Source: Candidatus Omnitrophota bacterium (GTDB lineage: Bacteria > Omnitrophota > Gorgyraeia > Zapsychrales > Fredricksoniimonadaceae). Taken from it: a DNA stretch of 64,000 nt. Position numbers and translations under genes: made by a program. Shown here piece after piece: positions 952 to 28,034 of the stretch. Below the pieces are notes generated by a model, which saw only the letters and a list, made by a program, of their open reading frames with translations, did no database searches and had not been told where the DNA came from. The stretch spans positions 272,648-336,647 of the forward strand of contig CAIOPG010000004.1 of the NCBI GenBank assembly GCA_903860135.1. Direction: 5' to 3'. Position 1 is the first letter of the stretch. The number at the start of each line of letters is the position of its first letter.

Positions 952-1163
952 CTTAGCCTCGGTTGCCATTCATGCACAATGCCTAAAAGCAATTCAACGA
1001 CTTAGGAAGTATAGCACAGAAAATTCGTCAAGCAAATTTTTAGATTTATTTTTACTTTTTTAAATGCTTTGTTATCAACACGTTACAGCTTTGTTTGAAT
1101 TTTTTATCTATTTATTTTATAATTTAAAATTTTTCTTTTGTATTGCCACCGTCGGATGGGAAG

Positions 1164-2154: not shown

Positions 2155-2163
2155 AATCCTGGG

Positions 2164-3021: not shown

Positions 3022-3038
3022 AAACGTCTCTCTAGTTA

Positions 3039-3421: not shown

Positions 3422-6211
3422 TTAAGAGCAACATTGAGAACATTTACGGAAAGCCATCTTGTATTTATTGTTTTCAATATAATATCGCGCACATGTTTCT
3501 GTCGCAACGCCCAGCCTCAACAAAGAATTGATATTATCCACGCACGTCACCCGCGTCGGAGCCTTTTGCGGATTCAACATGAACGCTTCGTTAAGGTGTT
3601 CCCCGGCCGGGATCGTGCCCGTTGGCTTGGTCTGCGGCAGGACACAGTTTGTCCACACCTGCGCGGCGGTGGCCGCGGTCTTGGGATTCCCGTGCGGATT
3701 ATGATAAAGGATCCGCCACAAAGAAAGGCCGCTCAGGAATTTTAGAAAACCATTCTCATTAAGATCATGATCTTCGTCATAACGCACCACCCGCAAACCA
3801 ACGCAACCCGAGGTATCTGTCAGCTCATAACACCGCGTAGAACCCAAGAAGCCCGTGGTATATGTTCTGATCCAAGGGAATCTATCCGTGCATGTGTTGA
3901 AACCAGCGGCACCGGTACTGCGGTTGGGTATGGCGGCTTCCACCTTGACAAGGTGCAAATAGCCATACCCGCGCGAGCCACTCCAGTCATCAGGCCGCGG
4001 AGAGAACCAGCCGTAAACAACCTGGTTGCCAAGACCACCGGCCTTTACCGCCGCATCCACAGCCAACACCAACTGCCTAAGCGTACCGGGAGCTGTGTTT
4101 AAATAAGCCAAGGCATTCTGCATAATAACCTTAGCGGCCTGGGCCTTTGTATTCATATCCTGCAAATACCGTTTGCGTGCGGCTATTTTTGCCACCTGAT
4201 TCATCGACAAATACGCACTTTCTTGTATATTTGCCAAATAACTGCTCGAGGCTGGCGAACATACCGCACCGGCACACACCGGCCTTCCGGGATCGGTGTT
4301 GGCATTGAACCCCGTCACCAAAGAACGCGGCATATTATTACAGGCGGTTGTAGGACACGACGGTGTCGCAACGGTGCAACCCGCACAAAGAACCTCGCAG
4401 GCATTAAAGGCGGTTGTTGCCCCCTCGTTGTATTCCAGGCATTTGATCACGCCGCCCAAGGACCCCCATGGCCCTCCTGTCAATATAGCATTGGCCTCTA
4501 TCGGCATAAGCCCCACTTGACTTGCCGGCACACACCAGCTTTGACTGTTGGCATACGGCCCCGCCTGCCAGGTATTGATCAACTGTATCCAACGTGCCAG
4601 ACGTGCCTGCCATAACACCATGGTATCGGCTGTCTGCAACACCGTTTCTTTCCAGGCACCTACCGAACTTAATATTGCTTTTTGCTTTGCGGCATCGGTC
4701 GTCAGCAAGCCTTCAAACGTAGCTTTAAAATAATCCGCCTCGATCGCAAAGGCGTCAAAAGCATCGTTCCTCCACAAATTTTTATGATCAGCGGCTGAAC
4801 AATTACAACCGTTCACAAGTGCCGCCGCCGTTTGGCCGGCTTCCTGACAAGCGGCCACGGCTGTGCCCGAGCTACCCGATTCCATCTTCACCGGATAAAT
4901 TTTTCCGGCTGTATCGGCGAACGTAGCCGAACCAAAATCTGCCCCTTTTTTCCAAACAAAATTTGTTGTCGCGTCAACGGCAGGGTCAACAGGACAGGCT
5001 GTGTCGGCAAGTGGCCGAAAAGCTGTTATATCCGCAACCGTATCGATGACACGCGTATCCAGGCTTGACGGTAAACTGCTTCGGTTACCAAAAACATGCG
5101 CACAACAACCGTTGCCCGTACACGGCTTGGGCAAAACCAGCTGATCATAGGCAACGGTCCCCGATGGACGATAAAGCAAGGGAGACGCCGTTTCCGGCGC
5201 ACACGTTCCAACAGCCGTTGCCGAACACCAATGACAACCGGGGCTGGTTGTTGCCAGACTGCTGTAAGAAAGGCTGGCCAATGCTGGCTGTGTATCCGCC
5301 AGAAGCCATAAAAACTTGAACATATCCCCCTTGCTGTCTCCGCCACGATAAATGCCCAGAGTATCTACCGCTTCGGAACCATAACTGGTGATATACCGCC
5401 GCGTATCCCCGTCATCAGCCTCGAGCACACCCATCAAGTTATTCCCTGGCGTCACTATGCCCAATCTGTCTTCAAAATCTTGCAAAAAGGCACGCAAGGC
5501 CTGAACCGATGCCACCGACACAGGCGCGATGCTTTTCATCCGTTCATTATAAAAATAAGCAAATCTGGGCACTTCTTCTCCGGGAATGCCTTTGTTAGTT
5601 AAAGCATCCGGATTATACCAACGTCCATCCATATCAAGATCCCAGCGATCATTCACCATCACGCCATCGCTCTGAACCGTACTCAAAGCCCCTTTAAGCC
5701 CGGCTTCAAGGTATTGATCTTCAACGGCCGGCATCGCCATCGCCGATTTATTCCAGGCCTTGGTCAGCCCAGGATCGCTGATACCCACCTGCAGTCCGAT
5801 CCCCACAGCCGTTAACACCGCCGCTGTTGCCGCGGCGGCAAAAACATTTCCGGCCAGCAAGGCACTAAAAAACGAACTGCCATTCAAAGAGGCTATCCCG
5901 CAACCCGGAACAAACACCATGATAGCAACAAGAAGAATTAGCGTAAGCAGGGAAGCAAAAAGCCCGGTGTATTGACACAGCTTAACGTTACCATCGAGCT
6001 GTGTCCCCATGATTTGACTTTGTCCATAGCTGGCCATCAACGACACCAGTGTCGATGCCCCGGTATTGGAAGAAATCGTGACCGCCGTCTTTATGGCTGT
6101 CATCCTGGACCAGTTCAGAGAAGCGGCATAAAGGATGAGGGCTACCGCTATCAGAACCATGATGATGAGGGACATTTGCCCTTTACGGCCTACTGGCATA
6201 ACCATCCTCAT
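3422..6211 (-). CDS. Large (929 aa) membrane-anchored, Cys-rich predicted extracellular protein of the Tad locus (TadG-like N-terminus; candidate pilus-associated adhesin)
   Basis: N-terminus RKGQMSLIIMVLIAVALILYA is pseudopilin-like; a second hydrophobic stretch; >40 Cys in the extracellular part; no recognisable enzyme motifs. Located between pilin array and tadB. Confidence 0.4.
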   Translation of the reverse strand: MRMVMPVGRKGQMSLIIMVLIAVALILYAASLNWSRMTAIKTAVTISSNTGASTLVSLMASYGQSQIMGTQLDGNVKLCQYTGLFASLLTLILLVAIMVFVPGCGIASLNGSSFFSALLAGNVFAAAATAAVLTAVGIGLQVGISDPGLTKAWNKSAMAMPAVEDQYLEAGLKGALSTVQSDGVMVNDRWDLDMDGRWYNPDALTNKGIPGEEVPRFAYFYNERMKSIAPVSVASVQALRAFLQDFEDRLGIVTPGNNLMGVLEADDGDTRRYITSYGSEAVDTLGIYRGGDSKGDMFKFLWLLADTQPALASLSYSSLATTSPGCHWCSATAVGTCAPETASPLLYRPSGTVAYDQLVLPKPCTGNGCCAHVFGNRSSLPSSLDTRVIDTVADITAFRPLADTACPVDPAVDATTNFVWKKGADFGSATFADTAGKIYPVKMESGSSGTAVAACQEAGQTAAALVNGCNCSAADHKNLWRNDAFDAFAIEADYFKATFEGLLTTDAAKQKAILSSVGAWKETVLQTADTMVLWQARLARWIQLINTWQAGPYANSQSWCVPASQVGLMPIEANAILTGGPWGSLGGVIKCLEYNEGATTAFNACEVLCAGCTVATPSCPTTACNNMPRSLVTGFNANTDPGRPVCAGAVCSPASSSYLANIQESAYLSMNQVAKIAARKRYLQDMNTKAQAAKVIMQNALAYLNTAPGTLRQLVLAVDAAVKAGGLGNQVVYGWFSPRPDDWSGSRGYGYLHLVKVEAAIPNRSTGAAGFNTCTDRFPWIRTYTTGFLGSTRCYELTDTSGCVGLRVVRYDEDHDLNENGFLKFLSGLSLWRILYHNPHGNPKTAATAAQVWTNCVLPQTKPTGTIPAGEHLNEAFMLNPQKAPTRVTCVDNINSLLRLGVATETCARYYIENNKYKMAFRKCSQCCS

Positions 6212-6227: not shown

Positions 6228-6458
6228 CTATTTCATGGGCCGGACTTGATGAAAATCCGGGTTCAACTGTTGTTCCGTTGAGAGCGATGCGTTCCTTAAA
6301 ACCGCTTCATGATCAAACCGGCGCTCGGCCATATCCATCATGCCCCAGCGAAAAACACCGATCATGCCGTTAATGAGCAAACAGACGACGATCATTCCCG
6401 CCGTATATTCCAGGATAGCCTGCCCATCTTTCTGCTTGTTATGACTCTTTGACATCAT
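6228..6458 (-). CDS. Flp-family prepilin-like protein (76 aa)
   Basis: KDGQAILEYTAGMIVVCLLING = G-QAIL-EY motif plus hydrophobic helix. Confidence 0.5.
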   Translation of the reverse strand: MMSKSHNKQKDGQAILEYTAGMIVVCLLINGMIGVFRWGMMDMAERRFDHEAVLRNASLSTEQQLNPDFHQVRPMK

Positions 6459-7912
6459 GGGGCTGACGTACTTTCATTCCAGGGTTCGTCCATGGCTGTT
6501 ACCCATTTCCGGCCGCGCTTGTCACTGATACGGCTTCGGATAAAAAGTCTCTTCATGGCCGTATCAAAACAGGTGCGCTGGATCATGGCCGTATCCATGC
6601 AACAACTGACACCCGTGGCGGCAGCCCCGCAGGAAGCCTCGACCGACACCGGATTCCTGCTCACAAACCCAGCCGGATCCATCATGTTCCAGTTCAATTG
6701 GTACTCACGTTCTATGACATCATTCTGATTTTTTCTAATTGTACTAACATTCAATGGTTGGCCACCCAATGAAAAATTTTTACCTTCTCGCACATCAAAA
6801 TAGGTTACTTCTCCCGCGGCGCATGTCGCTGTCGCCGTGGGAACACATTGTGTCTGCGAATAGATCCGCATATCGGGCCGCATCCCGGGCTTACGTTCAT
6901 CGGTCCCCGCAAAATCCGCCGCCGACTTGTTTGCGTCCAGATCACCTGCCGTTGTATCAATGACCGCAACCGTATACGCCACATAACCAGCACAGGCCGT
7001 GCCAGCCCACGTCAATGCATAAACGGTCTCTTCGGTGCGATCCCCGTTGACATCATAAGAGGGATACGCCCCATTGTCCGTATCGATTGAATCGGCAACC
7101 TCTTTCAGTGTTTTCCATGTCCATTGCCACGTCGGATCTCCAGCCGTCGTCATATCATCTGTATAAATACCATTGCGATCCAAATCAAACCGTCGCACAT
7201 CGTAAGCATTAAAATCCGTGTTGTTAGCCGTGATGGCCGTATAAAAAGGGGGCGTGGTACCTGTTGCTGTCGCTGTGCCGTAATGTGTCCATTCATAAAT
7301 CAACCGTTGCCGGGCAAGCTTGTTATTGTCTGAATTGATATTGACCACACCAGCACCCCCTGAACACATGCTGTCTCCGCTACCATCAGAAGGCAACAGC
7401 AAGATCGTCAGCTGATCTGCATTCGCCGCCGCCATGGTTGCGGGTGGCGCGGCCAACGCCGACTGTTGAAGTAGCATTTTGTATTTTACGAAAGCCCCCG
7501 TCGACATGTGAAATTCCTGACCATTGATCTTCATATCTACCATGGGAAGATTTTGATCTTCCTTCCAATCTACCGGTAACATAGCATTTTTATTCAGCAT
7601 CCCGGCCCCGGTCACCATGACCGGCTGACGATCAAGAAATCCGTATCTCCCAAAATCACCGGTCAGACGATCTTCAAAAAACACATACGATGCCTGCACC
7701 CGCGACGCCGTGTTACTTTCAGAAGAAAGATACGAACGGCTCAGGGCAATGCGCATGGCCTGCAATTGGGCATTCTGTTGAAAAGAACCGGAAAGAAAAT
7801 TCGTGGCAATACCTGTTATAATAAAAAAAAGCACAGCTCCGAAAATGGCCAATTCAATGATGGATTGCGCCAATGTCGAAGACAGTGCTTTCTTCCTTTG
7901 ATTCTTCATCAT
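6455..7912 (-). CDS. TadG/TadE-like pseudopilin-type large protein (485 aa)
   Basis: N-terminus ALSSTLAQSIIELAIFGAVLFFIITG: A-QSII-E(L) prepilin-like with Glu at +5, single N-terminal TM, large extracellular domain. Confidence 0.5.
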   Translation of the reverse strand: MMKNQRKKALSSTLAQSIIELAIFGAVLFFIITGIATNFLSGSFQQNAQLQAMRIALSRSYLSSESNTASRVQASYVFFEDRLTGDFGRYGFLDRQPVMVTGAGMLNKNAMLPVDWKEDQNLPMVDMKINGQEFHMSTGAFVKYKMLLQQSALAAPPATMAAANADQLTILLLPSDGSGDSMCSGGAGVVNINSDNNKLARQRLIYEWTHYGTATATGTTPPFYTAITANNTDFNAYDVRRFDLDRNGIYTDDMTTAGDPTWQWTWKTLKEVADSIDTDNGAYPSYDVNGDRTEETVYALTWAGTACAGYVAYTVAVIDTTAGDLDANKSAADFAGTDERKPGMRPDMRIYSQTQCVPTATATCAAGEVTYFDVREGKNFSLGGQPLNVSTIRKNQNDVIEREYQLNWNMMDPAGFVSRNPVSVEASCGAAATGVSCCMDTAMIQRTCFDTAMKRLFIRSRISDKRGRKWVTAMDEPWNESTSAP

Positions 7913-8236
7913 TTATGGTCCCGTAGGCGACATTGTTGAAGAAACTGTCTTGGCTTCCGTGCTCGTTGAATCATCCACCCTGTACGTGATCGAACCATTG
8001 ACTCCGGATGCTGTCGCCGGAATAACATAAAGGCGTGACTGAGAGGTTGTGCTTAAGGCATAATGTGTTTGTCCGGTCAGCGCATTGGCATCATACTGAT
8101 CGCCCAGATCATCCACCGACTGTTTCATGCGCCCTTGAAACCCGCGCTTGATGTAGGCCTGCATGGTCAAGAAAGCGGCGATGATAATCATGAGCAATAG
8201 CGAGTATTCCAGAAAACTTTGGGCTTTTCTCATCAT
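7913..8236 (-). CDS. Flp-family pilin-like protein (107 aa, Ser/Thr-rich C-terminus)
   Basis: MMRKAQSFLEYSLLLMIIIAAF: A-QSFL-EY motif + hydrophobic helix. Confidence 0.55.
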   Translation of the reverse strand: MMRKAQSFLEYSLLLMIIIAAFLTMQAYIKRGFQGRMKQSVDDLGDQYDANALTGQTHYALSTTSQSRLYVIPATASGVNGSITYRVDDSTSTEAKTVSSTMSPTGP

Positions 8237-8237
8237 A

Positions 8238-8570
8238 TCAATCCAGGATAAATCCCATATTAGTCAAAGAATTTGTCATTGTCGTTACTTGCTCTTGCAC
8301 ATTGCGCACACTCCATCCGCCCGCATCATTGCGCACATTGTCAATCTGACTGCTTGTGACTGTATTTGATCCCTGCAAATAGGCATCACCCGTATTCATG
8401 TCCTGTTCCGCTCCTTTTTGATCACCGATCTGATCAGCCGCAGATTTCATCATGCTTTGCGTGGTGCGTTTGAGGCGGGGAAACATCGTCATAACGGCAG
8501 CCACAAGAATGGTGATCAGCAGAACATATTCCATCAATGACTGTGCCCGGCGTGACAACAACATATACAT
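8238..8570 (-). CDS. Flp-family pilin-like protein (110 aa)
   Basis: RRAQSLMEYVLLITILVAAV: A-QSLM-EY motif. Confidence 0.55.
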   Translation of the reverse strand: MYMLLSRRAQSLMEYVLLITILVAAVMTMFPRLKRTTQSMMKSAADQIGDQKGAEQDMNTGDAYLQGSNTVTSSQIDNVRNDAGGWSVRNVQEQVTTMTNSLTNMGFILD

Positions 8571-8586
8571 TACCTGTTGTATTAAA

Positions 8587-8925
8587 TTATTGTGGCGCTG
8601 CCTGACTGCTATTGGATACGATCAAACGCTGTGTGCTTGTGTCTTTTTGATACCCCGTAGCCACAGCTTTTTCAGTTGCCTTTGTGTCTGTGTCCGTCGT
8701 CGTTGTTGACGTGGTGTAATAAGGTTCATATTCAACCTGGACTGGTTTATAAAGAGCAAGCGCGGCCTTGGCAACCACGAGCGCATTAATATCAAAACTC
8801 CGGGCTTGCAAGGTGCGGCGAACATAGATTGACATGCCAATGAGCGCGCCAACAACCAAAAAAATCAAAATGACATACTCGGCACTGATACCCTGGGCTT
8901 TTGTACAACGTAACTTCCTTGACAT
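8587..8925 (-). CDS. Flp-family pilin-like protein (~112 aa, Thr-rich; YEPYY motif shared with 9322..9693 paralog)
   Basis: Start placed at internal ATG (8925) preceded by GAGGG RBS: MSRKLRCTKAQGISAEYVILIFLVVGAL. Track ORF 8587..8988 extends upstream through the terminator hairpin. Confidence 0.5.
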   Translation of the reverse strand: MSRKLRCTKAQGISAEYVILIFLVVGALIGMSIYVRRTLQARSFDINALVVAKAALALYKPVQVEYEPYYTTSTTTTDTDTKATEKAVATGYQKDTSTQRLIVSNSSQAAPQ

Positions 8926-8942
8926 ACACCGCCCTCTGATGG

Positions 8943-8979
8943 GTAAAAAGCAGAAAGGGCTCCCCTGAGCCCTTTCTGC
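8943..8979 (-). terminator. Intra-array palindromic hairpin with flanking T-tract (GCAGAAAGGGCTC-4nt-GAGCCCTTTCTGC), placed right after the stop of the 8989..9303 pilin gene
   Basis: 13-bp perfect stem read from sequence; T-tract on both sides (bidirectional terminator-like). Likely attenuates read-through into downstream pilin paralogs. Confidence 0.45.
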
Positions 8980-8988
8980 TTTTGCCAA

Positions 8989-9303
8989 TCAATTACCCCA
9001 ATATTCACCATCCGTATTCGTTCCAATAGCACGAACGGTATTCTGGATCGTGTCATGTACCAACCCAGTCGTTGCAACACCGGAAGTGGAATTTTCCTGT
9101 GTTCGCGAATTGGTTGTCACAACCTTATAATAATTTGCAGCTGATGCTATAGAATATTGATCGCCTATATCATCTGTTGCGCTTTTCAAACGACCTGAAA
9201 TACCACGTTTGATATACGTTTGCAATGTTAAAAGTGCCGCAATGATGATAACCATCAAAATAGCATACTCGAGCACGCTTTGACCACGCTTTGTTTGCAA
9301 CAT
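8989..9303 (-). CDS. Flp-family pilin-like protein (104 aa)
   Basis: MLQTKRGQSVLEYAILMVIIIAALLTLQ: canonical G-XXXX-EY Flp motif. Confidence 0.6.
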   Translation of the reverse strand: MLQTKRGQSVLEYAILMVIIIAALLTLQTYIKRGISGRLKSATDDIGDQYSIASAANYYKVVTTNSRTQENSTSGVATTGLVHDTIQNTVRAIGTNTDGEYWGN

Positions 9304-9321
9304 AATGCTTTGTCCTTTCTC

Positions 9322-9693
9322 TTAGAAACCGGCAGCTGTTTCAGCAGCAGCCAGACCTCCGCCAACGGCGTTTTTGTTATAGATTGACGTGTCAACGTAA
9401 CCAGCCGCAACTGTTGTGGCTACGCTTGTATCTGTTGCAATATTGGTGTTTTCAAACTTTGTTTTCTGTGAATCCTTTGTCTCACTCTTATTGGTATAAT
9501 ACGGTTCATACTGTAATGTTGTCCCGAGAGCATTTGTCTCATCACGGAACTTGACATTAACGTCGCGGATACGGCCTTGCAGGGTGCGCTGGGCATACAT
9601 TTGCATGGCAATAACACCGCCGATAACAAGTGCTATCAGGATGGCATATTCTGCTGTGTTTTGTGCTTTTTTATTTCTGAATCTTTTTAACAT
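9322..9693 (-). CDS. Flp-family pilin-like protein (~123 aa)
   Basis: Start at ATG 9693 with GGAGG RBS 6 nt upstream: MLKRFRNKKAQNTAEYAILIALVIGGV (A-QNTA-EY). Track start 9708 is a TTG. Confidence 0.55.
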   Translation of the reverse strand: MLKRFRNKKAQNTAEYAILIALVIGGVIAMQMYAQRTLQGRIRDVNVKFRDETNALGTTLQYEPYYTNKSETKDSQKTKFENTNIATDTSVATTVAAGYVDTSIYNKNAVGGGLAAAETAAGF

Positions 9694-9704
9694 TGTAACC
9701 TCCT

Positions 9705-9893
9705 TCAATGTGAAGCATTTAATTTGTCAGCCATTAATCCAATTCCATTGATCGCATCGCTAAACGACCGGTTGACGGTCGTACGGAATGGCGACCCAGG
9801 TGTTACAACAAGCCCGATGATGATAACAATAACAGCTGTGACCAAAAGCACATATTCCAGCGTGCTTTGACCCTTTCGGTAACATCTTGACAT
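9705..9893 (-). CDS. flp: Flp pilin (62 aa)
   Basis: MSRCYRKGQSTLEYVLLVTAVIVIIIGLVV: canonical G-QSTL-EY; size typical of Flp; AGGAGG RBS upstream. Confidence 0.7.
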   Translation of the reverse strand: MSRCYRKGQSTLEYVLLVTAVIVIIIGLVVTPGSPFRTTVNRSFSDAINGIGLMADKLNASH

Positions 9894-9918
9894 GGCATTC
9901 CCTCCTGTTTAATTAAGC

Positions 9919-10065
9919 TTATTCTCTTTGGAATTCCGCTGTTATGCATTTTTGCTTCGACTGGACAGCACGGTACACATAGGTACTCATCGCAACAGCC
10001 GCTGTTGTGACAATGGCGACGACAAGGGCATATTCAACAACATTCTGGCCTTTGTAACGACACAT
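9919..10065 (-). CDS. flp: Flp pilin (48 aa), not present in the supplied ORF track (<60 aa)
   Basis: Manual translation: MCRYKGQNVVEYALVVAIVTTAAVAMSTYVYRAVQSKQKCITAEFQRE*; G-QNVV-EY motif; GAGG RBS upstream; first gene of the pilin array. Confidence 0.65.
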   Translation of the reverse strand: MCRYKGQNVVEYALVVAIVTTAAVAMSTYVYRAVQSKQKCITAEFQRE

Positions 10066-10282
10066 TGATAACCTCATCGCCGTTCCCCGTGTGCGTTAAG
10101 ACATAACACCCGAGACCCCCTGAATCTTTTGGGAGCGGGAATCCACCCGGGCACTCTATGTTGACGCTGGTTACCCTCGTCAACCCGATCCGGCCCCTAC
10201 AGAACCGATTTCGATGATGCTCCGTCAAAGAACGGAGCTGTAAGACATCCTACACAAGAAAAACAAACACATTCATAAATTG

Positions 10283-10366: not shown

Positions 10367-12154
10367 CTATGCTTTATTTTCAATGGAAAACCACCATTTT
10401 TGTCTATTTCTTTCGGCGATATCCACACCATTGATCTTGCGCAACAGGGTTGCCAGTTGATCCCTGCCCCCAAAACCCTGCGGAACAACCAACCTAACAA
10501 AAACAGAACCATTCCGTCGTTGTAAATACCCTGAAAGCGTATAGATGGATGATAATAGCTCCACATTGTCAAGTCCATAACGCTGGGCTAAATATACCTG
10601 ACATATGTTCAGCATTTTTTTCAAAACAACACCCGGTGCCGTATGGTCGGTATTTTCAATCTGTAAATAACGTTGTTTGTTTGTGGCTGTGGCATCATGA
10701 TCGTTGTGAAAATTTTCCAAACAGGAAAACTTTTCCAGGTAATGATCTACAATATCTTTAGCGGAAGCTTGTCCTGCCAGCAGGTTTGTAATAAAAAACA
10801 GTTTCTTTTCATTCCCGGGTACTTTTACAACCAAGCCTCTTAATATTTCAGATTGTTTATCAGCATCTGTAAACTGACAAAAACCATCGATCATTGAATA
10901 ATATTGGTCCAAAATAGCGTTGTACACTTTTTGGGGAGTGCCTGTTTCATCAAAAAGAAGCTTGTCAAAGAAACAACTTTCAATGTTGAAACCAGCAATA
11001 AAATTAATTTTTTTCGATGGGTCAAGACGGCCTTCCCACAACAAATCCTTCGCGCCTCCCCACAAACAAATTTTAACTGGTTTTTCTTCAGCCGCGCCAC
11101 TTAAGAACATCAGTGTCTCTTTTATGGCATCGGTTAAACCTTCCGAACACCTTAAAACCAGTGGCTTGACAGGGCAGGCAACACGATCAACAGCGTTCTC
11201 AACAGATTTAACGATCGAACACATATGGGCTTCTGGCACTTTATCCAGAAAACACCCCAGATCATGCCTCAACAAATAATGTTGTGCTTTATTACTTTCA
11301 AATGAAAAATATGCATTATCCACCACAGCCACAGCAACCTCAACATCGATGGCAGCCGCAAGGGACTTGTTCGAGTCGATATCATTTAATAATGTGTGGA
11401 AGGAAGAATCCATTAAAGGTTGTTCCTGTCCAAGCAATGTCCAAACAGACAATGCCTGTGCCTGTTCAATTTCTTTACCCCGTTCATATCCAAGCCCCTT
11501 GAACAAAACACCGGCTTCGAATAAACGCCGTCCCTCCATTATGTTACCGGCTATCCCCACAAACAACTCTTCGGTCAACTGACCGCTCAAAATGTCCAAT
11601 AAAGCCACATACAGAATGCTTATGCCCAAATTATTAATAATGGGATATGCCTCCTCTGCCCAAATATACGAACCCCTCACATCAAAAGAAACATCTTGAA
11701 CGACATCCGCTTGATTCCTGGCTAATAAATCAGGACTGAGCGTGGCTTGCTCAAACGTTGCGTCTTCTATGTTATCAATCAATCCCATATTGGGTGGCTT
11801 ACTAATGTTCACATCACTGTCCACAACATTTATACTGCTTAATACGCCTGTAGTTAAAATATTCCCTTGCGCCATGCTATCATCTTTTAACTCGTGCAAG
11901 AATGGCTTCACTTCAGCTAATAATTGTTCTTTTTTGTCTTTGGGGATAAAGAAATTCTTGGCAGAGGCACGGCCAACCGGATTACTTAAATTATATTCTT
12001 TAATAATGGCATTAATGGAGGATTTTGAAACTTCGATCTGGAAGGCTTCACGCACAATAGCTACAAGTTTTCGACAACTTAAAGAAGGCACTTCTTTCTT
12101 TTTGTCGATAATTAAATCTACAACATCTTTTCTTAATTTATAAGTAACACCCAT
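10367..12154 (-). CDS. Hypothetical protein (595 aa), lower GC than neighbours, N-terminal HTH-like segment
   Basis: Long ORF; N-terminus LSCRKLVAIVREAFQIEVSKSSINAIIKEY resembles a transposase-type HTH, but no DDE or other catalytic motif recognised. Confidence 0.35.
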   Translation of the reverse strand: MGVTYKLRKDVVDLIIDKKKEVPSLSCRKLVAIVREAFQIEVSKSSINAIIKEYNLSNPVGRASAKNFFIPKDKKEQLLAEVKPFLHELKDDSMAQGNILTTGVLSSINVVDSDVNISKPPNMGLIDNIEDATFEQATLSPDLLARNQADVVQDVSFDVRGSYIWAEEAYPIINNLGISILYVALLDILSGQLTEELFVGIAGNIMEGRRLFEAGVLFKGLGYERGKEIEQAQALSVWTLLGQEQPLMDSSFHTLLNDIDSNKSLAAAIDVEVAVAVVDNAYFSFESNKAQHYLLRHDLGCFLDKVPEAHMCSIVKSVENAVDRVACPVKPLVLRCSEGLTDAIKETLMFLSGAAEEKPVKICLWGGAKDLLWEGRLDPSKKINFIAGFNIESCFFDKLLFDETGTPQKVYNAILDQYYSMIDGFCQFTDADKQSEILRGLVVKVPGNEKKLFFITNLLAGQASAKDIVDHYLEKFSCLENFHNDHDATATNKQRYLQIENTDHTAPGVVLKKMLNICQVYLAQRYGLDNVELLSSIYTLSGYLQRRNGSVFVRLVVPQGFGGRDQLATLLRKINGVDIAERNRQKWWFSIENKA

Positions 12155-12190: not shown

Positions 12191-12538
12191 CTAAAAAGCT
12201 TTAATTTCAATTACATCACCTACGCTGGTCTCTGTTTGCTTAATGGTGCCGATAGGAAGTTCAATGGCACATGTCGCTTTCCAGAAAACAGAACTCATCT
12301 GGTTTGGTTTAATTTCTTCGACCAAACCAACAACAACGCCACGCCTATCAATAAAAACAACATCGATGGCCACTGACATAAAAAACATATGAATAGAATT
12401 GCATGATGTGATCACAAGCCCTTGACCTGGTTCAAGTGACTGCCGTCCTATTAAGCCTTTTGCTCTTGAAAATGGAGTTTTAGCTACTTCAGCGTGTTGG
12501 CTCAAACACTTATTATTCTTAAGATTTTTAATGATCAC
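12191..12538 (-). CDS. DUF192 (COG1430) family protein
   Basis: 115 aa; pattern …AKTPFSRAKGLIGRQSLEPGQGLVITSCNSIHMFFMSVAIDVVFIDRRGVV… typical of DUF192. Confidence 0.5.
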   Translation of the reverse strand: MIIKNLKNNKCLSQHAEVAKTPFSRAKGLIGRQSLEPGQGLVITSCNSIHMFFMSVAIDVVFIDRRGVVVGLVEEIKPNQMSSVFWKATCAIELPIGTIKQTETSVGDVIEIKAF

Positions 12539-14714
12539 TGGCAGGTGCGGCTTTATTTAACGCAAACATCCCCACGTTAAGCTCAACGCCGCGCTTGAGA
12601 AAGTCATCATAACACTTTGGAATATACCCTGTCGGTCTATAGTCACCCAAAACTCGTCCAGACGAATCAATCCCGCCTTGTTCAAAAACAAAAACATCCC
12701 GTAATTCGGGTAAACCATCAACAATGACCTTGGTTACCTCCGTAATCCCGGTGATCTTACGCGAACCATCAGAAAACCTGGAAACTTGAATAACAAAATC
12801 AATGGAAGAAGCGATCATTTCATAAACAGCACGCAAAGGCAGTTCAATGCCACTTAAAATGATCATGGCATTCAAGCGCGTGATGGCATCTCGTGTCGAA
12901 TTGGCGTGTAAAGTTGTCATGGATCCATCATGACCGGTATTCATGGCCTGAAGCATATCCAAAACTTCTGCCCCGCGACACTCACCCACAATGATCCGAT
13001 CCGGCCGCATACGCAACGTATTAATAAAAAGATCCCTGATCATGATCGCACCCTTGCCCTCAACATTCGGTGGGCGCGATTCAAGTCTGGCCCAGTGGGC
13101 TTTGTTGATCTTCAATTCCGCCGCATCCTCAATGGAAATGATACGTTCACCATCTGGAATGCACTCAGAAATAATATTGAGTAATGTTGTTTTACCCGAA
13201 CCGGTTCCACCTGAGACGACCATATTCTTGCGCGCGATGACAGCGGCTTGAATAAACGCCGCCATATCAGGCGTTAAACTTTTAAAACGATTCAAAAGAT
13301 CATTCATAACATACCGATCCTGACCAAACTTACGGATCGTGATCATGGGACCGCGCAAGGATAATGGCGGAATGATCGCATTAATACGTGAACCGTCAGG
13401 AAGGCGTGCGTCAACCATGGGTGTTGACTCATCAATACGTCGCCCAAGCGGAGCAATGATGCGGTCAATGACCGATCGCACCTGCTGATTGGATACAAAT
13501 CGCCTGTTCGTTAGTATGATCTTGCCGCCTTTTTCAACATAGATCTCATCTTTATTATTCACCATGATATCGGTGATCTCTGGGTCGGCAAGAAGCTCTT
13601 CAATCGCCCCAAACCCCAGTGCTTCATTAACAATATCAACAACAAGCTTGGTCCTTTCTTGATGCGAAGAAATAAGGACGCCTGTTTCTTCAGCCAACAA
13701 ATTGACAATGATCCGTTCTGCCTGTTTCTTTATTTGTGCAGCCTGTTCTACATCAGCCAAGGCCTCTGGTGTCACTGCCTGGAGATTCATGCGGTCGATG
13801 AGCTTCTCATGTATGCGTTTCTTTAACGCAATTATCGCTTCTTCTTCTTTACTTACAATGCGCTTGCTTGAGGGCCCCGTCGCAATGGTGTCATTAGCGC
13901 CTGTGGACATCCATAAATTATCAGTTTTTGCGTCTTCTGTTGAACGACCACGAACAACTTCTGTTGTATTAACATACAATTCTTCATGATCGATGTCTTT
14001 AATCAACTGCATGAACGCAAAAGATACTTTGGCCTTGGGATTGTCCACAACAACAGGGACTCCCTTGTTCAAAGCCATCCCAACAACCTTACCATCCGAA
14101 GGTATCTTTGTGATAATATCACACGAAAGCGCATCTTTAACTTCTTGCCATGCAACACCACCGTGACTTTCCGCACGATTGAGCACAAGCTTGATCATTT
14201 TGAGCGGGAAATGCTGACTTTGTAGAATTTCAAGACCCCATTTGATCTGATAAACAGCAAGAATATCCGGTGTCGCCACCAAAAGGATCAAATTTGTCAT
14301 GTCAAGAATAGACACCAATGTTTCCGTAAAAGCCTTCCCGACATCAATAATGATATAATCATAATGCGGGGCAACTCTTTTAAGGAACAACTTCACATTA
14401 TCTGGTGTGATATGGCCTGTTTGATGAATGGTGATAACAGCTGAAATAAAATCCAGACCTGAAGAATGCGTTACCATCAAGTTCTTGATACTTTCAAAAT
14501 CCATTGATTCCTGAATTTCAGGTAAAATATCAACAATGGACTTCTTCGGTGCCACATTCAACATGCGCGCCATATCTTGACCGGATTGAAAATCGAGGTC
14601 AATAACAAGCGTTTTTTTGCGTGATAGTGCCAGCGTAACAGCCGTGTTGACACAAACAAACGTTTTGCCGACGCCACCTTTATTGCTAAAAACCGTTATT
14701 GTTCTTGCTGCCAT
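12528..14714 (-). CDS. Fused TadZ/CpaE-like (MinD/ParA-type ATPase) – TadA/CpaF (secretion ATPase) protein, 728 aa
   Basis: N-terminal TVFSNKGGVGKTFV deviant Walker A of the MinD/CpaE family. C-terminal region has VSGGTGSGKTTLLN Walker A, IIVGECRGAEVLDMLQAMNTGHDGSMTTLHANS His-box and the CpaF signature, in one continuous frame. Confidence 0.75.
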   Translation of the reverse strand: MAARTITVFSNKGGVGKTFVCVNTAVTLALSRKKTLVIDLDFQSGQDMARMLNVAPKKSIVDILPEIQESMDFESIKNLMVTHSSGLDFISAVITIHQTGHITPDNVKLFLKRVAPHYDYIIIDVGKAFTETLVSILDMTNLILLVATPDILAVYQIKWGLEILQSQHFPLKMIKLVLNRAESHGGVAWQEVKDALSCDIITKIPSDGKVVGMALNKGVPVVVDNPKAKVSFAFMQLIKDIDHEELYVNTTEVVRGRSTEDAKTDNLWMSTGANDTIATGPSSKRIVSKEEEAIIALKKRIHEKLIDRMNLQAVTPEALADVEQAAQIKKQAERIIVNLLAEETGVLISSHQERTKLVVDIVNEALGFGAIEELLADPEITDIMVNNKDEIYVEKGGKIILTNRRFVSNQQVRSVIDRIIAPLGRRIDESTPMVDARLPDGSRINAIIPPLSLRGPMITIRKFGQDRYVMNDLLNRFKSLTPDMAAFIQAAVIARKNMVVSGGTGSGKTTLLNIISECIPDGERIISIEDAAELKINKAHWARLESRPPNVEGKGAIMIRDLFINTLRMRPDRIIVGECRGAEVLDMLQAMNTGHDGSMTTLHANSTRDAITRLNAMIILSGIELPLRAVYEMIASSIDFVIQVSRFSDGSRKITGITEVTKVIVDGLPELRDVFVFEQGGIDSSGRVLGDYRPTGYIPKCYDDFLKRGVELNVGMFALNKAAPASDH

Positions 14715-14724: not shown

Positions 14725-16578
14725 TTATTTATGCGCGGAAATATTATTTAAAAATGAATCCAGGCTATATAAAATAGAAACTGTAATTTCCAATGTTTCA
14801 GCCTGAATAGTCTGTGGAAAAGCATCATACGGTGCCAATATTTGTGCCGTATTAACCGCATCTTGATCAAAGACGGGGTGTCCTGAAGATTTTTTTACAA
14901 CAACATCTTTAAGTGTGCCGTCTTTTGTTATGACCAGAGCTAGCTGAACGATGCCTTTCCAATTCTTTTCCTGCGCTTCATACGGATACGCAATGGCCGT
15001 TGATATTTTTTCCTGGATCAATTTGGCATATTTATCTTCCTCTGAAACAATGGGAGAGGATGATTTTACCGGTTCGACTTTGGATGCTATTTTGTTATTA
15101 ACAGGTGTCGTTGGTGCCGGTGCCGTTTTATTCACCATTGATTTTACAGGATTGGAACCCCCGACAACGTCGGTTAAAGCCGGAGCCCTATTGACTTCAG
15201 CCTTCAACTGCCGGGCAAAGTCATCCGCTTTATCTTCTGCGGCAAACGCTGAGCCGCTCTTTTGCGGCACATCAAGGCTTGCTGGTGTTTTCTTATCTTT
15301 GCCGTTAGTATCCAACAGCTTATCCGTGTCTTCGATCAGCTTTTTATCATTAGGTAGAATGGTTGCCGTAATGGAAATAACAACCTCGGTTTCTTCATTG
15401 GGTGCTGGCGTTTTTGAACTGCGGAAAAATATTCCCACAACCGGGATCTTGCTAAGGAAAGGAACACGACGAACCACTTCCGTATTCCGGCGCTTGATCA
15501 TGCCCGCAAGAACAATGGTCTGATGGTCTTGCAATAAAAGTTGTGTTTTTGCAGATCGCGTTAAAAAGGCAACGTCCGTCCCTGTAGGCTTTGAACCATC
15601 GATTTCGCTGATCTCGGCATTGAGCAAAATATTTACAAGATTGCCAGCCTGAATCGATGGTGTAACCGCCATAGTAACACCGTAAGGTTTAAATGTCTTG
15701 TTTTGCTGTGTCGATCCGCCACTGGCACTCGTCGTCGTTGTATTGATCGGGATTTCTCCGCCAACCAAAAAGGTCGCTTCTTTTCCACTGATAACCACAA
15801 GTCGCGGCTTCGAAAGGATCTTGCCTTTCCCTTCTTCGATCAACGCATTGACGGCACCGACCAGCGCATTGGTACGGCTAAGGCTTCCGATCCTCCATAT
15901 GTCGCTCAATGAACCCTGATTCGTTGGGATTGTTTCCTGATATGTGGGATTCAACGGATTAGTTGCGCCATCCATACCCCAATCGATCCCCATCTCTTTG
16001 GTAAGCGTTGTGGACAACTCGGTGATCTGCATATCGATCTGAACAAGGTCTTCAATCTTTTCTTTCTGAACAAGATTAATGATGCGGTCCATGAAAGGAT
16101 CAATGACCTTGATCAACACCTCCATCTTTTCTTCCGACAGCGCACCTGTAAGAACGACCTTGCCTTCATCTTTATTTTCACTTAATACCACATTCTTAAT
16201 GCCAACGCCCGCCAGTAAAGATTGAAGCCTTTTCCTGACAAGGCCGGGATCTTCCTGAACAACACGAATGATAACCGTCCGTTTCCCGCTATCATCCCAA
16301 ATAAACAAAACCGTCTGCCCCGGATCAATGGCTATAATATCCACAGAATCAATGCGCGCATCGTTAATATCAGCAACAACAGGATCTGTGATCGAAACTC
16401 TTTTTAAATTTTTCGCGGGAATGCTTTGAATGTCACCCTTAACAATTTGAAGCTCTTCATTTCCTTTTTCTGCGGCCGCAAAAGAAAGCGTCGGCATGCC
16501 ACTTGACAACATAACAACCGCCAAAGCAATTGATAACGCGGTTCTCATCACCCTGGAAAAATCAACCGTGTTCATCAA
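14725..16578 (-). CDS. Secretin (CpaC/RcpA-like) with C-terminal TonB_C-like domain
   Basis: Signal peptide; secretin C-domain (…VPFLSKIPVVGIFFRSS…EVVISITATILP). A Pro/Lys-rich linker follows. The C-terminus YPYEAQEKNWKGIVQLALVITKDGTLKDVVVKKSSGHPVFDQDAVNTAQILAPYDAFP matches the TonB C-terminal domain pattern. Confidence 0.75.
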   Translation of the reverse strand: MMNTVDFSRVMRTALSIALAVVMLSSGMPTLSFAAAEKGNEELQIVKGDIQSIPAKNLKRVSITDPVVADINDARIDSVDIIAIDPGQTVLFIWDDSGKRTVIIRVVQEDPGLVRKRLQSLLAGVGIKNVVLSENKDEGKVVLTGALSEEKMEVLIKVIDPFMDRIINLVQKEKIEDLVQIDMQITELSTTLTKEMGIDWGMDGATNPLNPTYQETIPTNQGSLSDIWRIGSLSRTNALVGAVNALIEEGKGKILSKPRLVVISGKEATFLVGGEIPINTTTTSASGGSTQQNKTFKPYGVTMAVTPSIQAGNLVNILLNAEISEIDGSKPTGTDVAFLTRSAKTQLLLQDHQTIVLAGMIKRRNTEVVRRVPFLSKIPVVGIFFRSSKTPAPNEETEVVISITATILPNDKKLIEDTDKLLDTNGKDKKTPASLDVPQKSGSAFAAEDKADDFARQLKAEVNRAPALTDVVGGSNPVKSMVNKTAPAPTTPVNNKIASKVEPVKSSSPIVSEEDKYAKLIQEKISTAIAYPYEAQEKNWKGIVQLALVITKDGTLKDVVVKKSSGHPVFDQDAVNTAQILAPYDAFPQTIQAETLEITVSILYSLDSFLNNISAHK

Positions 16579-17414
16579 TTAGTCCCCCTTCCACTTTTGA
16601 AGATCTGAATGGCAGGCCCTTGCGAAAGTCCCAATGAGGCAGCGCCTGACGATGCGGTATCCGATACATTAAGGTCCGCCCCGGTATTTTGTAACACATA
16701 CTCGGCCAGTGTTGACCATGTCGCGGCAGAGATCATGGTGGACTTTTTTTCATTCGGTGAACGAAGGGCTAATTCAAGTTTGCCATTCTTTTCCGCAAAG
16801 GACAACAGGCTGGCCTCTTCGGGCGATACAGCAAAGGTGATCTTCAGCGAACGATCGTTTTGCTGTTGATCATAACCGCCAGGTTGATCAATATTGGTAT
16901 TAATGGCCAGTATCTGAAGATTCTGAAAGATCATGGCTGTTACAGCCTCTCTCTTTTCCTTATCTTTCTTTCTTCCCATCGAAGACTCCATATCGGGAAG
17001 ATTCAGTTGCGCGATAATATCCACATAATCACCAGGATTAAGCAAGCCACCCACAGCACCGAGAGAATCTATCATCAGTGTCAGCGCACGTTTCCCGGCC
17101 GGCATACGCAAGGCCAATGAAACAGCCTTGCGTTCCTTCCCTGGAACTTCCGCCACAGCGACGGCTCCTGCATTCTGCGCAGATTTCTGCATATTCTGCT
17201 CGACTTGAGCAATCTTTTGATTGAGTGCCCCGAGTTCCTGTTTATAAGCATCATCACGTTGCTTTTGATCTTTTTGATATTTCTGCGCAATCTTGGTTGT
17301 CTGCTCATTGATCGATTGCGTCACATAAACACTGACCAAATAAGCGGCAAGAAGACCTATGCCCACAGCAAGGAGAAGCACCAACAACTGATTCTTATTT
17401 TCCATCAATGCCAT
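16575..17414 (-). CDS. Flp pilus assembly protein CpaB/RcpC-like
   Basis: N-terminal TM, coiled-coil, SAF-like segment RALTLMIDSLGAVGGLLNPGDYVDIIAQLN; located directly upstream of secretin. Confidence 0.5.
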   Translation of the reverse strand: MALMENKNQLLVLLLAVGIGLLAAYLVSVYVTQSINEQTTKIAQKYQKDQKQRDDAYKQELGALNQKIAQVEQNMQKSAQNAGAVAVAEVPGKERKAVSLALRMPAGKRALTLMIDSLGAVGGLLNPGDYVDIIAQLNLPDMESSMGRKKDKEKREAVTAMIFQNLQILAINTNIDQPGGYDQQQNDRSLKITFAVSPEEASLLSFAEKNGKLELALRSPNEKKSTMISAATWSTLAEYVLQNTGADLNVSDTASSGAASLGLSQGPAIQIFKSGRGTN

Positions 17415-19692: not shown

Positions 19693-19715
19693 GGGAAATA
19701 TAACATGCTGTCTTA

Positions 19716-22181
19716 TTATTCTTCTGCCGCGTCATCTTCGCGCGCCACCACATTGGCGATAGAAGCCACCGCGTCTCCGGTCTCGAGCATCACCAGCCGC
19801 ACCCCCATGGCACTGCGACCTGTCAGACGGACATCCGCCGGATTACAACGGATCATCATGCCCTGTTTGGTCATGGTCATCAGCTCGCCATCCTCATGCA
19901 CGACAAGCACGCTGACCACCTGACCATTCTTCGCCGTGCATTTCAAGTTGATGATACCCTTGCCACCGCGCGACTGCACGCGGTAATCTTCAAACTTCGA
20001 ACGCTTCGCATACCCCAGCGAGGCAACGGTCAATAGCGTATTGCCGGTCTTATCCGCATTCTGATCAAAAACGATCATGCCAACCACGGCGTCTTTAGAC
20101 GCCAGGCTGATGCCGCGCACGCCCCTGGCCCCGCGGCCGATATCGCGCAATTGCTGTTCCTGGAAGCGCAGGGATTTGCCCAAACGCGTTGCCAAAAGCA
20201 CATCCTTGTTGCCGTCGGATATTTCAACACCGATCAACACATCATCTTTATCCAGCGTGATGCCGATGATCCCGCCCTTGCGCGGATTGCTGAAGGCGGA
20301 AAGTTTCGTCTTCTTCACAACGCCGTGTGCCGTGGCCATCAGAAGGAACTGGTCGTCCTTGAATTCCTTGACCGCGACAATGGCCGTGATGTATTCATCT
20401 GACGAAAAAGATAAAAGATTAACAATGGCCTTGCCCTTGGACTGCCGGGAAGCCACCGGGATCTCGTACACCTTGAGCCAGCGGATAACGCCCTTGTTAG
20501 AAAAGATAAGAAGATAATCCTTGGACGAGGCCACGAACAGCCTTTCCACAAAATCTTCTTCTTTGGTTGTCATGCCGGTAACACCCTTGCCGCCACGCTT
20601 CTGCTTGCGGTAAGTCTGGACGGGAATGCGCTTGACATAACCCGTATTGGAGATCGTGATTGCCATGTCTTCCTCGGCAATCAGGTCTTCCATTTCTATC
20701 TCTTCGGCTTTCCCGGCAATTTCGGTGCGGCGAGGATCGCCAAATTTCGCCTTAAGGTCAGCCAATTCTTTTTTAATGATCGCATCGACCATGGCGGCAC
20801 TGGCAAGAATGGCACGGTAACCATCGATCGCCTTGAGCAATTCGTTGTATTCCGCGTCAATTTTATCGCGTTCCAGACCTGTCAGTTTCTGCAACTGCAT
20901 TTCCAGGATCGCCTGGGCCTGGATCTCGGTGAGGCCGAACAGCCTCATCAACGATGCCTTGGCCTCGGGTGTCGACGGGGACTTACGGATCGTCTGAATG
21001 ATCTCTTCTATGTTCTTTAGGGCGATGCGCAGGCCTTCGAGGATATGCGCGCGGCGCAGGGCTTTATCAAGATCAAATTGTGTGCGTTTGCGGATAACAA
21101 TACGACGATGATCAATATAATAATCCATCAACTGCTTGAGGTTGAGCACGCGCGGATTATTGTTCACTAAAGCAAGGTTGATAATACCAAACGTGGTCTC
21201 GAGCTGGGTGTGCTTGAACAAATAATTAAGGACAATTTGCGCTTCCACATCACGCCGCAATTCAATGACGATACGAATACCGTCCTTATCCGATTCATCG
21301 CGCAAGTCCGTAATACCGTCAACGGCTTTATTCTGCACCAACGAGGCAATGCTCGACACCAGGTTGGACTTATTCACCTGATATGGGATTTCGGTGATAA
21401 TAATAAAATCTTTGCCATTCTTTTGCTGTTCAATGGCAGCTTTGGCGCGAAGATTGATCTTGCCACGGCCCGTCATGTAAGCATCCCTGATGCCCTCCTT
21501 GCCGCAAATAATCCCGGCTGTCGGGAAATCCGGGCCCTTGACAAAACGCATCAGGTCCTTGATCTCGGCTTCAGGATTTTCGATCAGATGCACAACCCCG
21601 TCGATGATTTCGCCCAGGTTGTGCGGTGGCATATTCGTAGCCATACCAACGGCGATACCGCTGGAACCATTCACCAGCAAATTCGGCATCCCCGACGGAA
21701 GGATCGTCGGCTCTTCGAGCGTTGCGTCAAAATTTGGCGCAAATTTAACGGTTTCCTTATCAATGTCTGCCAGCATACTCTCGGTGATCGACGCCATGCG
21801 GGCTTCCGTGTAACGCATCGCGGCCGCCGCATCACCGTCAACCGACCCGAAGTTACCCTGACCATCAACCAACGGATAACGCAGGGAAAACTCCTGCACC
21901 ATGCGCACCATGGTTTCATACACCGCGGAGTCGCCGTGCGGATGGTATTTACCCAACACTTCACCGACGATACGCGCACTCTTCTTATAAGACTTGTTAT
22001 GCTCCAGATGCAACTCTTTCATCGCATACAGGACCCTGCGGTGCACAGGCTTCAAGCCGTCGCGGACATCCGGCAGGGCGCGCCCCACAATAACGCTCAT
22101 GGAATACGCCAGATAAGAGGACTTCATTTCCTCTTCAATGGCAACAGGAACGATCTTTTCTTTCTTAGTGAAATCTTTCAT
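19716..22181 (-). CDS. gyrA: DNA gyrase subunit A
   Basis: 821 aa; N-terminal …[25 protein letters not shown]… QRDR region; C-terminal beta-pinwheel repeats. Confidence 0.95.
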
Positions 22182-22205
22182 CTATGAAACCTTTGTTAAA
22201 CAAGA

Positions 22206-25000
<2,795 letters not shown>

Positions 25001-26181: not shown

Positions 26182-26190
26182 TGTGGATAA
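26182..26190 (-). promoter_or_regulatory. DnaA box (TGTGGATAA = TTATCCACA on minus) in dnaN–dnaA spacer
   Basis: Perfect 9-mer consensus read from sequence. Confidence 0.5.
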
Positions 26191-28016: not shown

Positions 28017-28034
28017 CTGACAGCTGTCACGTTT

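Follow-up and report, generated by a model that had tools for sequence, protein, structure and literature searches.

A TadZ–CpaF fusion ATPase in an origin-proximal Tad locus of an Omnitrophota bacterium

TadZ is known from Tad (type IVc) pilus systems as a hub of polar recruitment whose Walker A motif is atypical (PMC6668835). In Bdellovibrio bacteriovorus, a 'TadZA hybrid protein' encoded in tad locus 1 has been described (bioRxiv 10.64898/2026.07.08.737194), and according to the same preprint the Bdellovibrio fusion had been noted earlier. This TadZA is devoid of the receiver-like N-terminal domain of TadZ (the atypical receiver domain; ARD), is essential and cannot be deleted; its TadZ portion and linker are necessary and sufficient for binding RomR, a hub protein at the pole, and the protein moves quickly from pole to pole, favouring the invasive one (bioRxiv 10.64898/2026.07.08.737194). 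The Omnitrophota have not been cultivated, are mostly ultra-small and are suspected of living as predators or parasites; a conserved, origin-proximal Tad locus is among the main genomic arguments for this suspicion (PMC10066038). In this study, we analyse a tadZA-type gene in a 64,000-nucleotide stretch of DNA (the window) from a Candidatus Omnitrophota bacterium (assembly GCA_903860135.1, contig CAIOPG010000004.1, positions 272,648 to 336,647). It encodes, in one polypeptide, a TadZ/CpaE-type ATPase domain and a CpaF/TadA motor, and is probably the only cytoplasmic ATPase in a chromosomally encoded Tad pilus machine, built in the manner of TadZA. The fusion is no new kind of protein and adds an Omnitrophota member to an architecture already known; what is modestly new is the conserved linker motif of the Omnitrophota homologues and the metagenomic breadth of the architecture. 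The Omnitrophota literature that was searched makes no mention of the fusion.

A single chain with two ATPase modules

The gene is one open reading frame (ORF) on the reverse strand, with an ATG start and a sole stop codon at its end. In the encoded protein of 728 amino acids (aa), a MinD/ParA-type domain (residues 4–253) is followed by a disordered tether of about 35–40 residues and by a CpaF/TadA module (residues ~293–728). The features discussed below are as follows.

12528–14714, reverse strand: the whole tadZA-type gene, 728 codons plus stop (ORF list; more than 110 full-length homologous clusters)
13965–14714, reverse strand: TadZ/CpaE-type ATPase domain, residues 1–250, with no receiver-like ARD before it (Pfam, 3ea0, CpaE homology, structure prediction)
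14661–14684, reverse strand: deviant Walker A motif NKGGVGKT, residues 11–18, with signature Lys12 and P-loop Lys17 (motif, alignment)
13839–13964, reverse strand: inter-domain linker, residues 251–292, predicted to be disordered at 258–290
13899–13916, reverse strand: linker motif LWMSTG, residues 267–272, a degenerate copy of the Omnitrophota motif [DNE]FWEKFG[IV]
12528–13838, reverse strand: CpaF/TadA module, residues 293–728, made up of an N-terminal helical bundle, an N-terminal domain (NTD) and a RecA-like C-terminal domain (CTD) (solved structures, Foldseek, T2SSE)
13185–13211, reverse strand: CpaF Walker A motif GGTGSGKTT, residues 502–510 (motif, alignment)
12906–13139, reverse strand: Asp box, Walker B and His box, residues 526–603 (motif, alignment)

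Pfam assigns AAA_31/ParA/CbiA to residues 4–253 (E = 1e-16 to 9e-13) and T2SSE to residues 367–643 (E = 5e-59), and the TadA-family model of NCBIfam covers residues 326–657 (E = 6e-96). The original prediction, made from the DNA letters alone, had held that one polypeptide joins a TadZ/CpaE-like ATPase to CpaF; the single ORF, the Pfam and NCBIfam matches (the profile searches that it had proposed as a check) and the structure matches confirm this, and the deviant Walker A, the CpaF Walker A and the Asp and His boxes are all found where it had placed them. Conservation was assessed in an alignment of 28 Omnitrophota homologues. Column identity is 0.74 in the TadZ domain, 0.69 in the helical bundle, 0.86 in the NTD and 0.80 in the CTD, and falls to 0.52 in the linker, the least conserved internal region. 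The AlphaFold2 (AF2) model of the fusion protein, built with the same 28 sequences (mean pLDDT 67.7), consists of a MinD-like fold with pLDDT values mostly of 70–90, a disordered segment at residues 258–290 (pLDDT < 40) and then the helical bundle, NTD and CTD of CpaF.

The motor module belongs to the CpaF class. Residues ~320–711 match the solved CpaF hexamers 8rjf, 8rkd and 9e24 (E = 6e-117), the module finds the CpaF fold in a Foldseek comparison (E = 3e-36), and its T2SSE domain has the Walker A, Asp box (ISIEDAAE, residues 526–533), Walker B (DRIIVGE, residues 572–578) and His box (TGHDGSMTTLH, residues 593–603) intact. Within these motifs, Gly502, Gly503, Thr504, Gly507, Lys508, Thr509 and Thr510 of the Walker A and Glu529, Asp530, Glu533, Asp572, Glu578, His595 and His603 are invariant across the alignment. 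CpaF structures score 393 bits, compared with 130 for FlaI/GspE and 102 for VirB11, and the PilB, PilT and GspE models of NCBIfam reach at most 50 bits. A TadB/TadC platform, an RcpA-type secretin, CpaB/RcpC and Flp/TadE-like prepilins are encoded alongside. Judging from its 45–47% identity to the solved hexamers, the module would be expected to form an ATP-hydrolysing hexamer that drives pilus dynamics, and the complete fusion protein is likewise predicted to assemble as a hexamer. In the N-terminal module, Lys12, Gly13–Gly16, Lys17, Asp39, Asp41 and Asp124 are invariant.

The linker carries a short conserved element in an otherwise variable setting. The sequence [DNE]FWEKFG[IV], or a variant of it differing at one residue, is found in the linker of 27 of the 28 aligned homologues; the window protein has LWMSTG at this place, retaining Trp268 and Gly272 alone, a degenerate form that it shares with its 97%-identical relative, P0001. 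A comparison of linkers found no FWEKFG motif in the fusions of the Bdellovibrionales. The motif appears to be specific to the Omnitrophota and undescribed so far, and is a candidate for a short linear motif that contacts a partner or the membrane.

The architecture, conservation, homology and operon context of this gene, which is the only ATPase gene of its operon and encodes two intact nucleotide-binding modules, suggest the following mechanism. The fusion would most likely have arisen by read-through of an adjacent tadZ–tadA pair. The CpaF hexamer would power both extension and retraction of the Flp pilus on the TadB/TadC platform, with the TadZ ATPase domain, its ARD lost, hanging on the disordered tether. 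This domain would bind ATP, would probably hydrolyse it, because its catalytic residues are fully conserved, and would form sandwich dimers in the style of MinD; each hexamer would carry six TadZ modules, i.e. up to three dimers. The TadZ module and the linker, possibly by way of the linker motif, may dock the motor to a site-determining partner, a positional cue or a membrane platform, and by this docking a single polypeptide would couple motor recruitment and site selection at a fixed ratio of 1:1. That the covalent link fixes a 1:1 stoichiometry had already been predicted; the claim holds provided that there is no internal start and no processing, neither of which was seen.

Several points weigh against this proposal. 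The localization, the dimerization, the ATPase activity of the N-terminal module and the binding partner are all matters that we infer. Canonical TadZ has been reported to bind ATP but to hydrolyse it poorly (PMC6668835), so conserved catalytic residues are no proof of turnover. Since FWEKFG is degenerate in the window protein, docking that depends on the motif may be weakened here, and Pfam and NCBIfam recognized no RomR-like gene in the window and no receiver-domain gene in the operon. A shorter product consisting of CpaF only could conceivably be made from an internal start: no start preceded by a Shine–Dalgarno sequence lies near the junction, which is a weak test because the gene's own start also has no obvious Shine–Dalgarno sequence.

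The strongest alternative, which we nevertheless regard as unlikely, is that the N-terminal modules clamp the CpaF hexamer under the control of nucleotide, their ATP-dependent dimerization between neighbouring subunits switching the motor between extension, retraction and idling. The invariant catalytic residues suggest real nucleotide cycling, and the short tether holds the six modules, enough for three dimers, near the ring. Because a single bifunctional motor both extends and retracts the pilus in Tad systems, a switching mechanism is needed, and the TadZA of B. bacteriovorus is highly dynamic and not statically polar (bioRxiv 10.64898/2026.07.08.737194). However, the AF2 monomer shows no confident packing between the domains (pTM 0.44), and the activity demonstrated for the TadZ portion and linker of B. 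bacteriovorus is binding to the polarity hub. The two roles, positioning and clamping, are not mutually exclusive, and we favour positioning of the motor as the role of the N-terminal module.

Identity of the N-terminal module and integrity of the fusion

Judged by homology, the N-terminal module is the ATPase domain of TadZ/CpaE, colinear with the ancestral gene order and deprived of its receiver-like ARD. Its family was surveyed by scanning the family alignment against GTDB species genomes with tblastn, which gave 80 loci, and by then checking the continuity of the ORFs. About 55 of these loci consist of two genes, a CpaE/TadZ of 380–470 aa followed directly by a CpaF of 430–480 aa, in Firmicutes, Actinomycetota, Chloroflexota, Acidobacteriota, Nitrospirales, Proteobacteria and others, and the N-terminal domain of the fusion is homologous to the C-terminal half of these upstream CpaE genes. 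The ATPase domain begins at residues ~120–225 in unfused CpaE and at residues 1–20 in the fused forms. All complete unfused homologues carry an N-terminal extension of 120–225 aa (~365 aa in locus L009), and the unfused CpaE of locus L005 is recognized by Pfam as Response_reg plus AAA_31. Because the ATPase domain of the window protein begins at residue 4, there is no room for an ARD. The previous description of the module as 'TadZ-like' is therefore to be narrowed: it is a CpaE/TadZ ATPase domain but not a full TadZ, since the N-terminal atypical receiver domain is missing.

The assignment to TadZ/CpaE rests on scores that exceed those of MinD and ParA and on the best solved match. Against CpaE ATPase domains encoded upstream of cpaF the domain scores 50–158 bits (100–158 bits for CpaE of Firmicutes, Chloroflexota and Actinomycetota), compared with at most 46.7 bits against MinD structures and 29.8 bits against the ParA encoded in the same window. 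The top solved match by sequence (E = 4e-17) and the top fold match of the predicted domain (TM score 0.89, r.m.s.d. 2.3 Å) are the same entry, 3ea0, a ParA-family protein with a KGGDGGS loop of the TadZ type. The K/RGGxGx[ST] loop that marks TadZ/CpaE within the ParA/MinD superfamily is present as NKGGVGKT, and the domain lies directly 5' of CpaF sequence, as in the two-gene loci.

We consider it very improbable that the N-terminal domain is instead a generic MinD/ParA/FlhG-type ATPase recruited from the division or partition machinery, for which 'TadZ-like' would be a misnomer. This possibility draws on the missing ARD, on the presence of a full MinD-type KGGxGK[ST] P-loop in place of the 'atypical' K/RGGxGx[ST], on the annotation of many homologues in IMG as 'septum site-determining protein MinD' and on matches of the NCBIfam MinD models to residues 4–250 (E = 5e-24). 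These matches, however, stay far under the cutoffs of the equivalogs (78.5 bits against a cutoff of 212.9 for TIGR01968 and 84.8 bits against 201.75 for TIGR01969); the best relatives are unfused CpaE encoded directly upstream of cpaF; the top match in both sequence and fold has a TadZ-type loop; and the order of the domains matches the tadZ–tadA gene order. The chain continues into CpaF at its C-terminus, and its context is a Tad operon, neither of which fits MinD. The complete KGGxGK[ST] loop also occurs in 18 of the 47 unfused CpaE homologues scored. For the same reason we rejected the full P-loop as a hallmark of fusions, to which it is not special. The earlier label 'MinD-type' thus survives at the level of the superfamily, the nearest relatives being CpaE/TadZ ATPase domains and not MinD.

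The gene is a genuine, conserved and functional TadZ–CpaF fusion under selection. Homologues were sought among 5.8 billion clustered proteins: over 110 separate clusters with 61–97% identity to the fusion protein and lengths of 698–739 aa contain both domain sets in a single frame throughout, and all their named members are Candidatus Omnitrophota/Omnitrophica. The idea that separate cpaE and cpaF genes only appear joined, through a missing stop codon or a frameshift introduced in sequencing or assembly, deserves next to no credence: the canonical arrangement is indeed two neighbouring genes in the same order and the suspected zone (~13,900–14,000) coincides with the poorly conserved linker (residues 251–292), but the single-frame fusion is conserved across these independent clusters, P0001 (728 aa), from a separate ENA assembly, is 97.4% identical and colinear with 19 substitutions and zero indels, the junction DNA (13839–13964) has no homopolymer of 6 nt or longer and eight and ten stops in its other two frames, cultured Bdellovibrio with complete genomes (L026, NZ_CP178619; L045, CP025734) share the architecture, and tagged full-length TadZA has been detected experimentally in B. 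bacteriovorus (bioRxiv 10.64898/2026.07.08.737194). The search of related genomes suggested with the original prediction has therefore found the same fusion, and the sequencing error at the junction that it named as a possible refutation is excluded.

Distribution and origin of fused motors

Among the 80 loci, true fusions are confined to the Omnitrophota, the Bdellovibrionales (among them Bdellovibrio sp. HCB288 and sp. qaytius, whose genomes are complete), a metagenome-assembled genome (MAG) of WOR-3 (locus L070, 810 aa), an uncultured MAG (L012, 702 aa) and the Eremiobacterota (L053). A near-universal fusion, suggested by tblastn matches of full coverage (residues ~3–718) in about 15 phyla, was considered and rejected because, at the ORF level, most of these matches proved to be cpaE and cpaF as separate neighbours. 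When 1.84 billion representatives at 50% identity were searched exhaustively, 41,481 matches were returned, of which the best 150 were classified: 64 are ARD-less TadZ–CpaF fusions, 57 have another N-terminal extension (of the FHA, KilF type in those that were examined), nine are tandem CpaF–CpaF proteins and 20 are plain CpaF. Two more fused representatives, from metagenomic lineages, lie in complete Tad loci and are called as single genes. The fusion had been called unusual, which is correct in relation to textbook systems, but the same architecture has been described as 'TadZA' in B. bacteriovorus and makes up 64 of those best 150 representatives.

Whether the fusions share one origin was addressed with neighbour-joining (NJ) distance trees with bootstraps, calculated for the N-terminal domain, for CpaF and for both concatenated. 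The fused clades themselves are firm (bootstrap 1.0 for the Omnitrophota and 0.99–1.0 for the Bdellovibrionales). Their grouping as sisters has bootstraps of 0.40 in the N-domain tree, 0.43 in the concatenated tree and 0 in the CpaF tree, in which FHA-CpaFs are interspersed. The linkers of the two groups do not align, the WOR-3 fusion is placed elsewhere in the tree, and a larger N-domain tree contains about nine all-fused clades. Recurrent fusion of the always-adjacent tadZ–tadA pair is likely; the distance trees do not settle it.

The surveys also brought up other N-extended or multi-module motors. In the Eremiobacterota MAG (CAWCIZ010000003.1; L053, 9128–12910, forward strand), a 1260-aa ORF has CbiA at residues 294–481, T2SSE at 626–901 and T2SSF at 1092–1217; it is an apparent TadZ–TadA–TadB triple fusion, and may retain an N-terminal extension. 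Four proteins of ~1150–1600 aa (P0017, P0019, P0022 and P0059), which score very high against the query, have at least two complete CpaF modules one after the other in the chain, which makes them covalent dimers or multimers of CpaF. In 11 loci (L042, L044, L047, L048, L051, L055, L058, L065, L074, L077 and L079), CpaF has an N-terminal extension of 130–330 aa that is not TadZ, and no TadZ gene is adjacent; the extension is an FHA domain, as in the known KilF type, in L048 and L055 (Myxococcota) and has no recognizable domain in L065 (Acidithiobacillus). These motors intermix with TadZ-fused CpaFs in the NJ tree. A fused protein from a contig labelled 'uncultured Planctomycetales' (L002, CAYZPQ010000129.1) shares 60% identity with the query and falls inside the Omnitrophota clade of the N-domain tree; the label of this bin is probably wrong.

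By analogy with Bdellovibrio, it is possible, although doubtful, that the ARD-less fusion is a hallmark of attack or attachment Tad machines in predatory or epibiotic lineages and that FWEKFG serves as a docking site for a polarity or prey-contact hub in the Omnitrophota. If so, the lineages concerned would be the Bdellovibrionota, the Omnitrophota and several metagenomic clades, linked by whole-locus transfer or by repeated origin, and the near-invariant FWEKFG would stand in for the receiver domain that was lost, analogous to the interaction of RomR with the TadZ portion and linker.

Tad operon, chromosomal setting and comparison with known systems

The fusion gene lies in a tightly packed Tad operon whose genes are all on the reverse strand, in the order peptidyl-prolyl isomerase (PPIase), cpaB/rcpC, secretin, fusion, DUF192, a 595-aa ORF and eight prepilins, continued by ORFs of 929 and 113 aa, tadB-like and tadC-like. 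The neighbouring features are listed here.

16575–17414, reverse strand: cpaB/rcpC, the first Tad operon gene (Pfam RcpC, E = 2e-24; TIGR03177 above its cutoff)
14725–16578, reverse strand: secretin of the RcpA/CpaC type with a C-terminal TonB_C domain (Pfam Secretin, E = 5e-39; T2SS-T3SS_pil_N; TonB_C, E = 8e-16)
12191–12538, reverse strand: DUF192 gene with a GTG start, overlapping the end of tadZA by 11 nt (Pfam DUF192, E = 5e-20)
10367–12154, 3422–6211 and 3039–3380, reverse strand: ORFs of 595, 929 and 113 aa, with no Pfam or NCBIfam match
6455–10077, reverse strand: eight Flp/TadE-like prepilin genes with the motif [GA]|Qxx(x)EY (translations)
1240–3093, reverse strand: tadB-like (2164–3093) and tadC-like (1240–2154) genes (Pfam T2SSF, E = 2e-14 each)
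~19700–32000: chromosomal origin region, with dnaA (26209–27597), dnaN, gyrB and gyrA on the reverse strand and yidC, parA (30189–31028) and parB on the forward strand

The secretin gene is situated 10 nt upstream of the fusion gene. With its TonB_C domain, it is another unusual fusion encoded by this operon; secretins homologous to it, 537–607 aa long, are encoded in the Omnitrophota loci L001, L003 and L004. The position of the DUF192 gene is kept in L001 and L003, and in L004 the gene is found elsewhere within the locus. DUF192 genes also follow tadC in unfused tad loci of Firmicutes (the loci with DUF192 being L001, L003, L004, L005 and L010), and DUF192 may be an unrecognized accessory component of Tad systems. 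The prepilin-like proteins are 52, 62, 128, 104, 133, 110, 107 and 485 aa long and match no pilin model of Pfam or NCBIfam. L003 encodes, at the equivalent place, a weak homologue of the 595-aa ORF; with Pfam and NCBIfam, no TadD, TadE, TadF, TadG or TadV was recognized among the family-less ORFs of the operon. No Peptidase_A24 (TadV/CpaA) gene was seen in the operon region, and an ORF that runs off the end of the window (1–969, reverse strand) has a weak match to Peptidase_C39. The 64-kb window contains no second TadZ-like or CpaF-like ORF. Gene order is partly shared with other Omnitrophota: L001 has the same run from mdh to DUF192, L003 has that from PPIase to DUF192, and L004 keeps the core of CpaB, secretin and fusion.

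The Tad locus is about 9 kb from dnaA, with dnaN, gyrB, gyrA and mdh in between and yidC and parAB beyond the point at which the GC skew switches sign in the origin region; the GC fraction falls to 0.355 at 26–28 kb. In Ca. Velamenicoccus archaeovorus LiM, too, a Tad locus near the origin has been reported (PMC10066038), and the present arrangement is similar to it.

Of the known systems, MinD, FlhG and FleN share the fold and the deviant Walker A with the N-terminal domain (TM scores of 0.69–0.83 for the predicted structure) but have much lower sequence scores than CpaE; unlike them, the N-terminal domain has no free C-terminal amphipathic membrane-targeting helix and its gene context is neither min nor flagellar. 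An FHA-CpaF, KilF from the Kil system of Myxococcus xanthus (PMC8460266), likewise has a domain for regulation or targeting joined to the N-terminus of a Tad-type motor, and in the NJ tree such FHA-CpaFs group close to the CpaFs fused to TadZ; the N-terminal module of KilF, however, is a phosphopeptide-binding FHA domain and not a P-loop ATPase, and no TadZ stands alongside. The CpaF of Caulobacter crescentus (8rjf, 8rkd and 9e24) aligns with the motor module over about 420 residues and has all of the catalytic boxes in common with it. Stand-alone CpaF has a short N-terminal region before the aligned core, the match starting at residue 98 of the 501-aa chain of 9e24, whereas the fusion has a folded ATPase domain of 250 aa and a tether ahead of it.

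Canonical TadZ/CpaE of Aggregatibacter actinomycetemcomitans, C. crescentus and E. rectale is encoded by a separate gene upstream of tadA/cpaF. It shares with the window protein a homologous ATPase domain, the KGGxGx[ST] loop, the place relative to CpaF sequence and the type of operon; in contrast to it, the window protein has no receiver-like domain and continues covalently into CpaF at the C-terminus of the ATPase domain. The comparison corrects the names under which homologues stand in databases, i.e. 'MinD', 'CpaF' or 'T2SS/T4P/T4SS ATPase'.

The closest counterpart is the TadZA of Bdellovibrio. Both are single ORFs of ~720–750 aa in which an ARD-less N-terminal TadZ, a flexible linker and a canonical TadA/CpaF follow one another; both genes come after cpaB/rcpC and the secretin gene in a Tad locus, and each is the sole TadZ of that locus. 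The Bdellovibrio fusions L026 and L045 have the same Pfam architecture and are ~37–40% identical to the window protein over its full length. The Bdellovibrionales differ in their linker, which can be neither aligned with that of the Omnitrophota nor found to hold FWEKFG, in a P-loop reading KGGVGKS instead of KGGVGKT, and in the gene downstream of the fusion, which is tadB instead of DUF192. As a candidate interaction motif, FWEKFG offers a way towards whatever positions the Tad machine of the Omnitrophota, and a motor built like the TadZA of Bdellovibrio, which prey invasion requires and which is wired to a polarity hub, gives these bacteria a concrete and testable parallel with Bdellovibrio.

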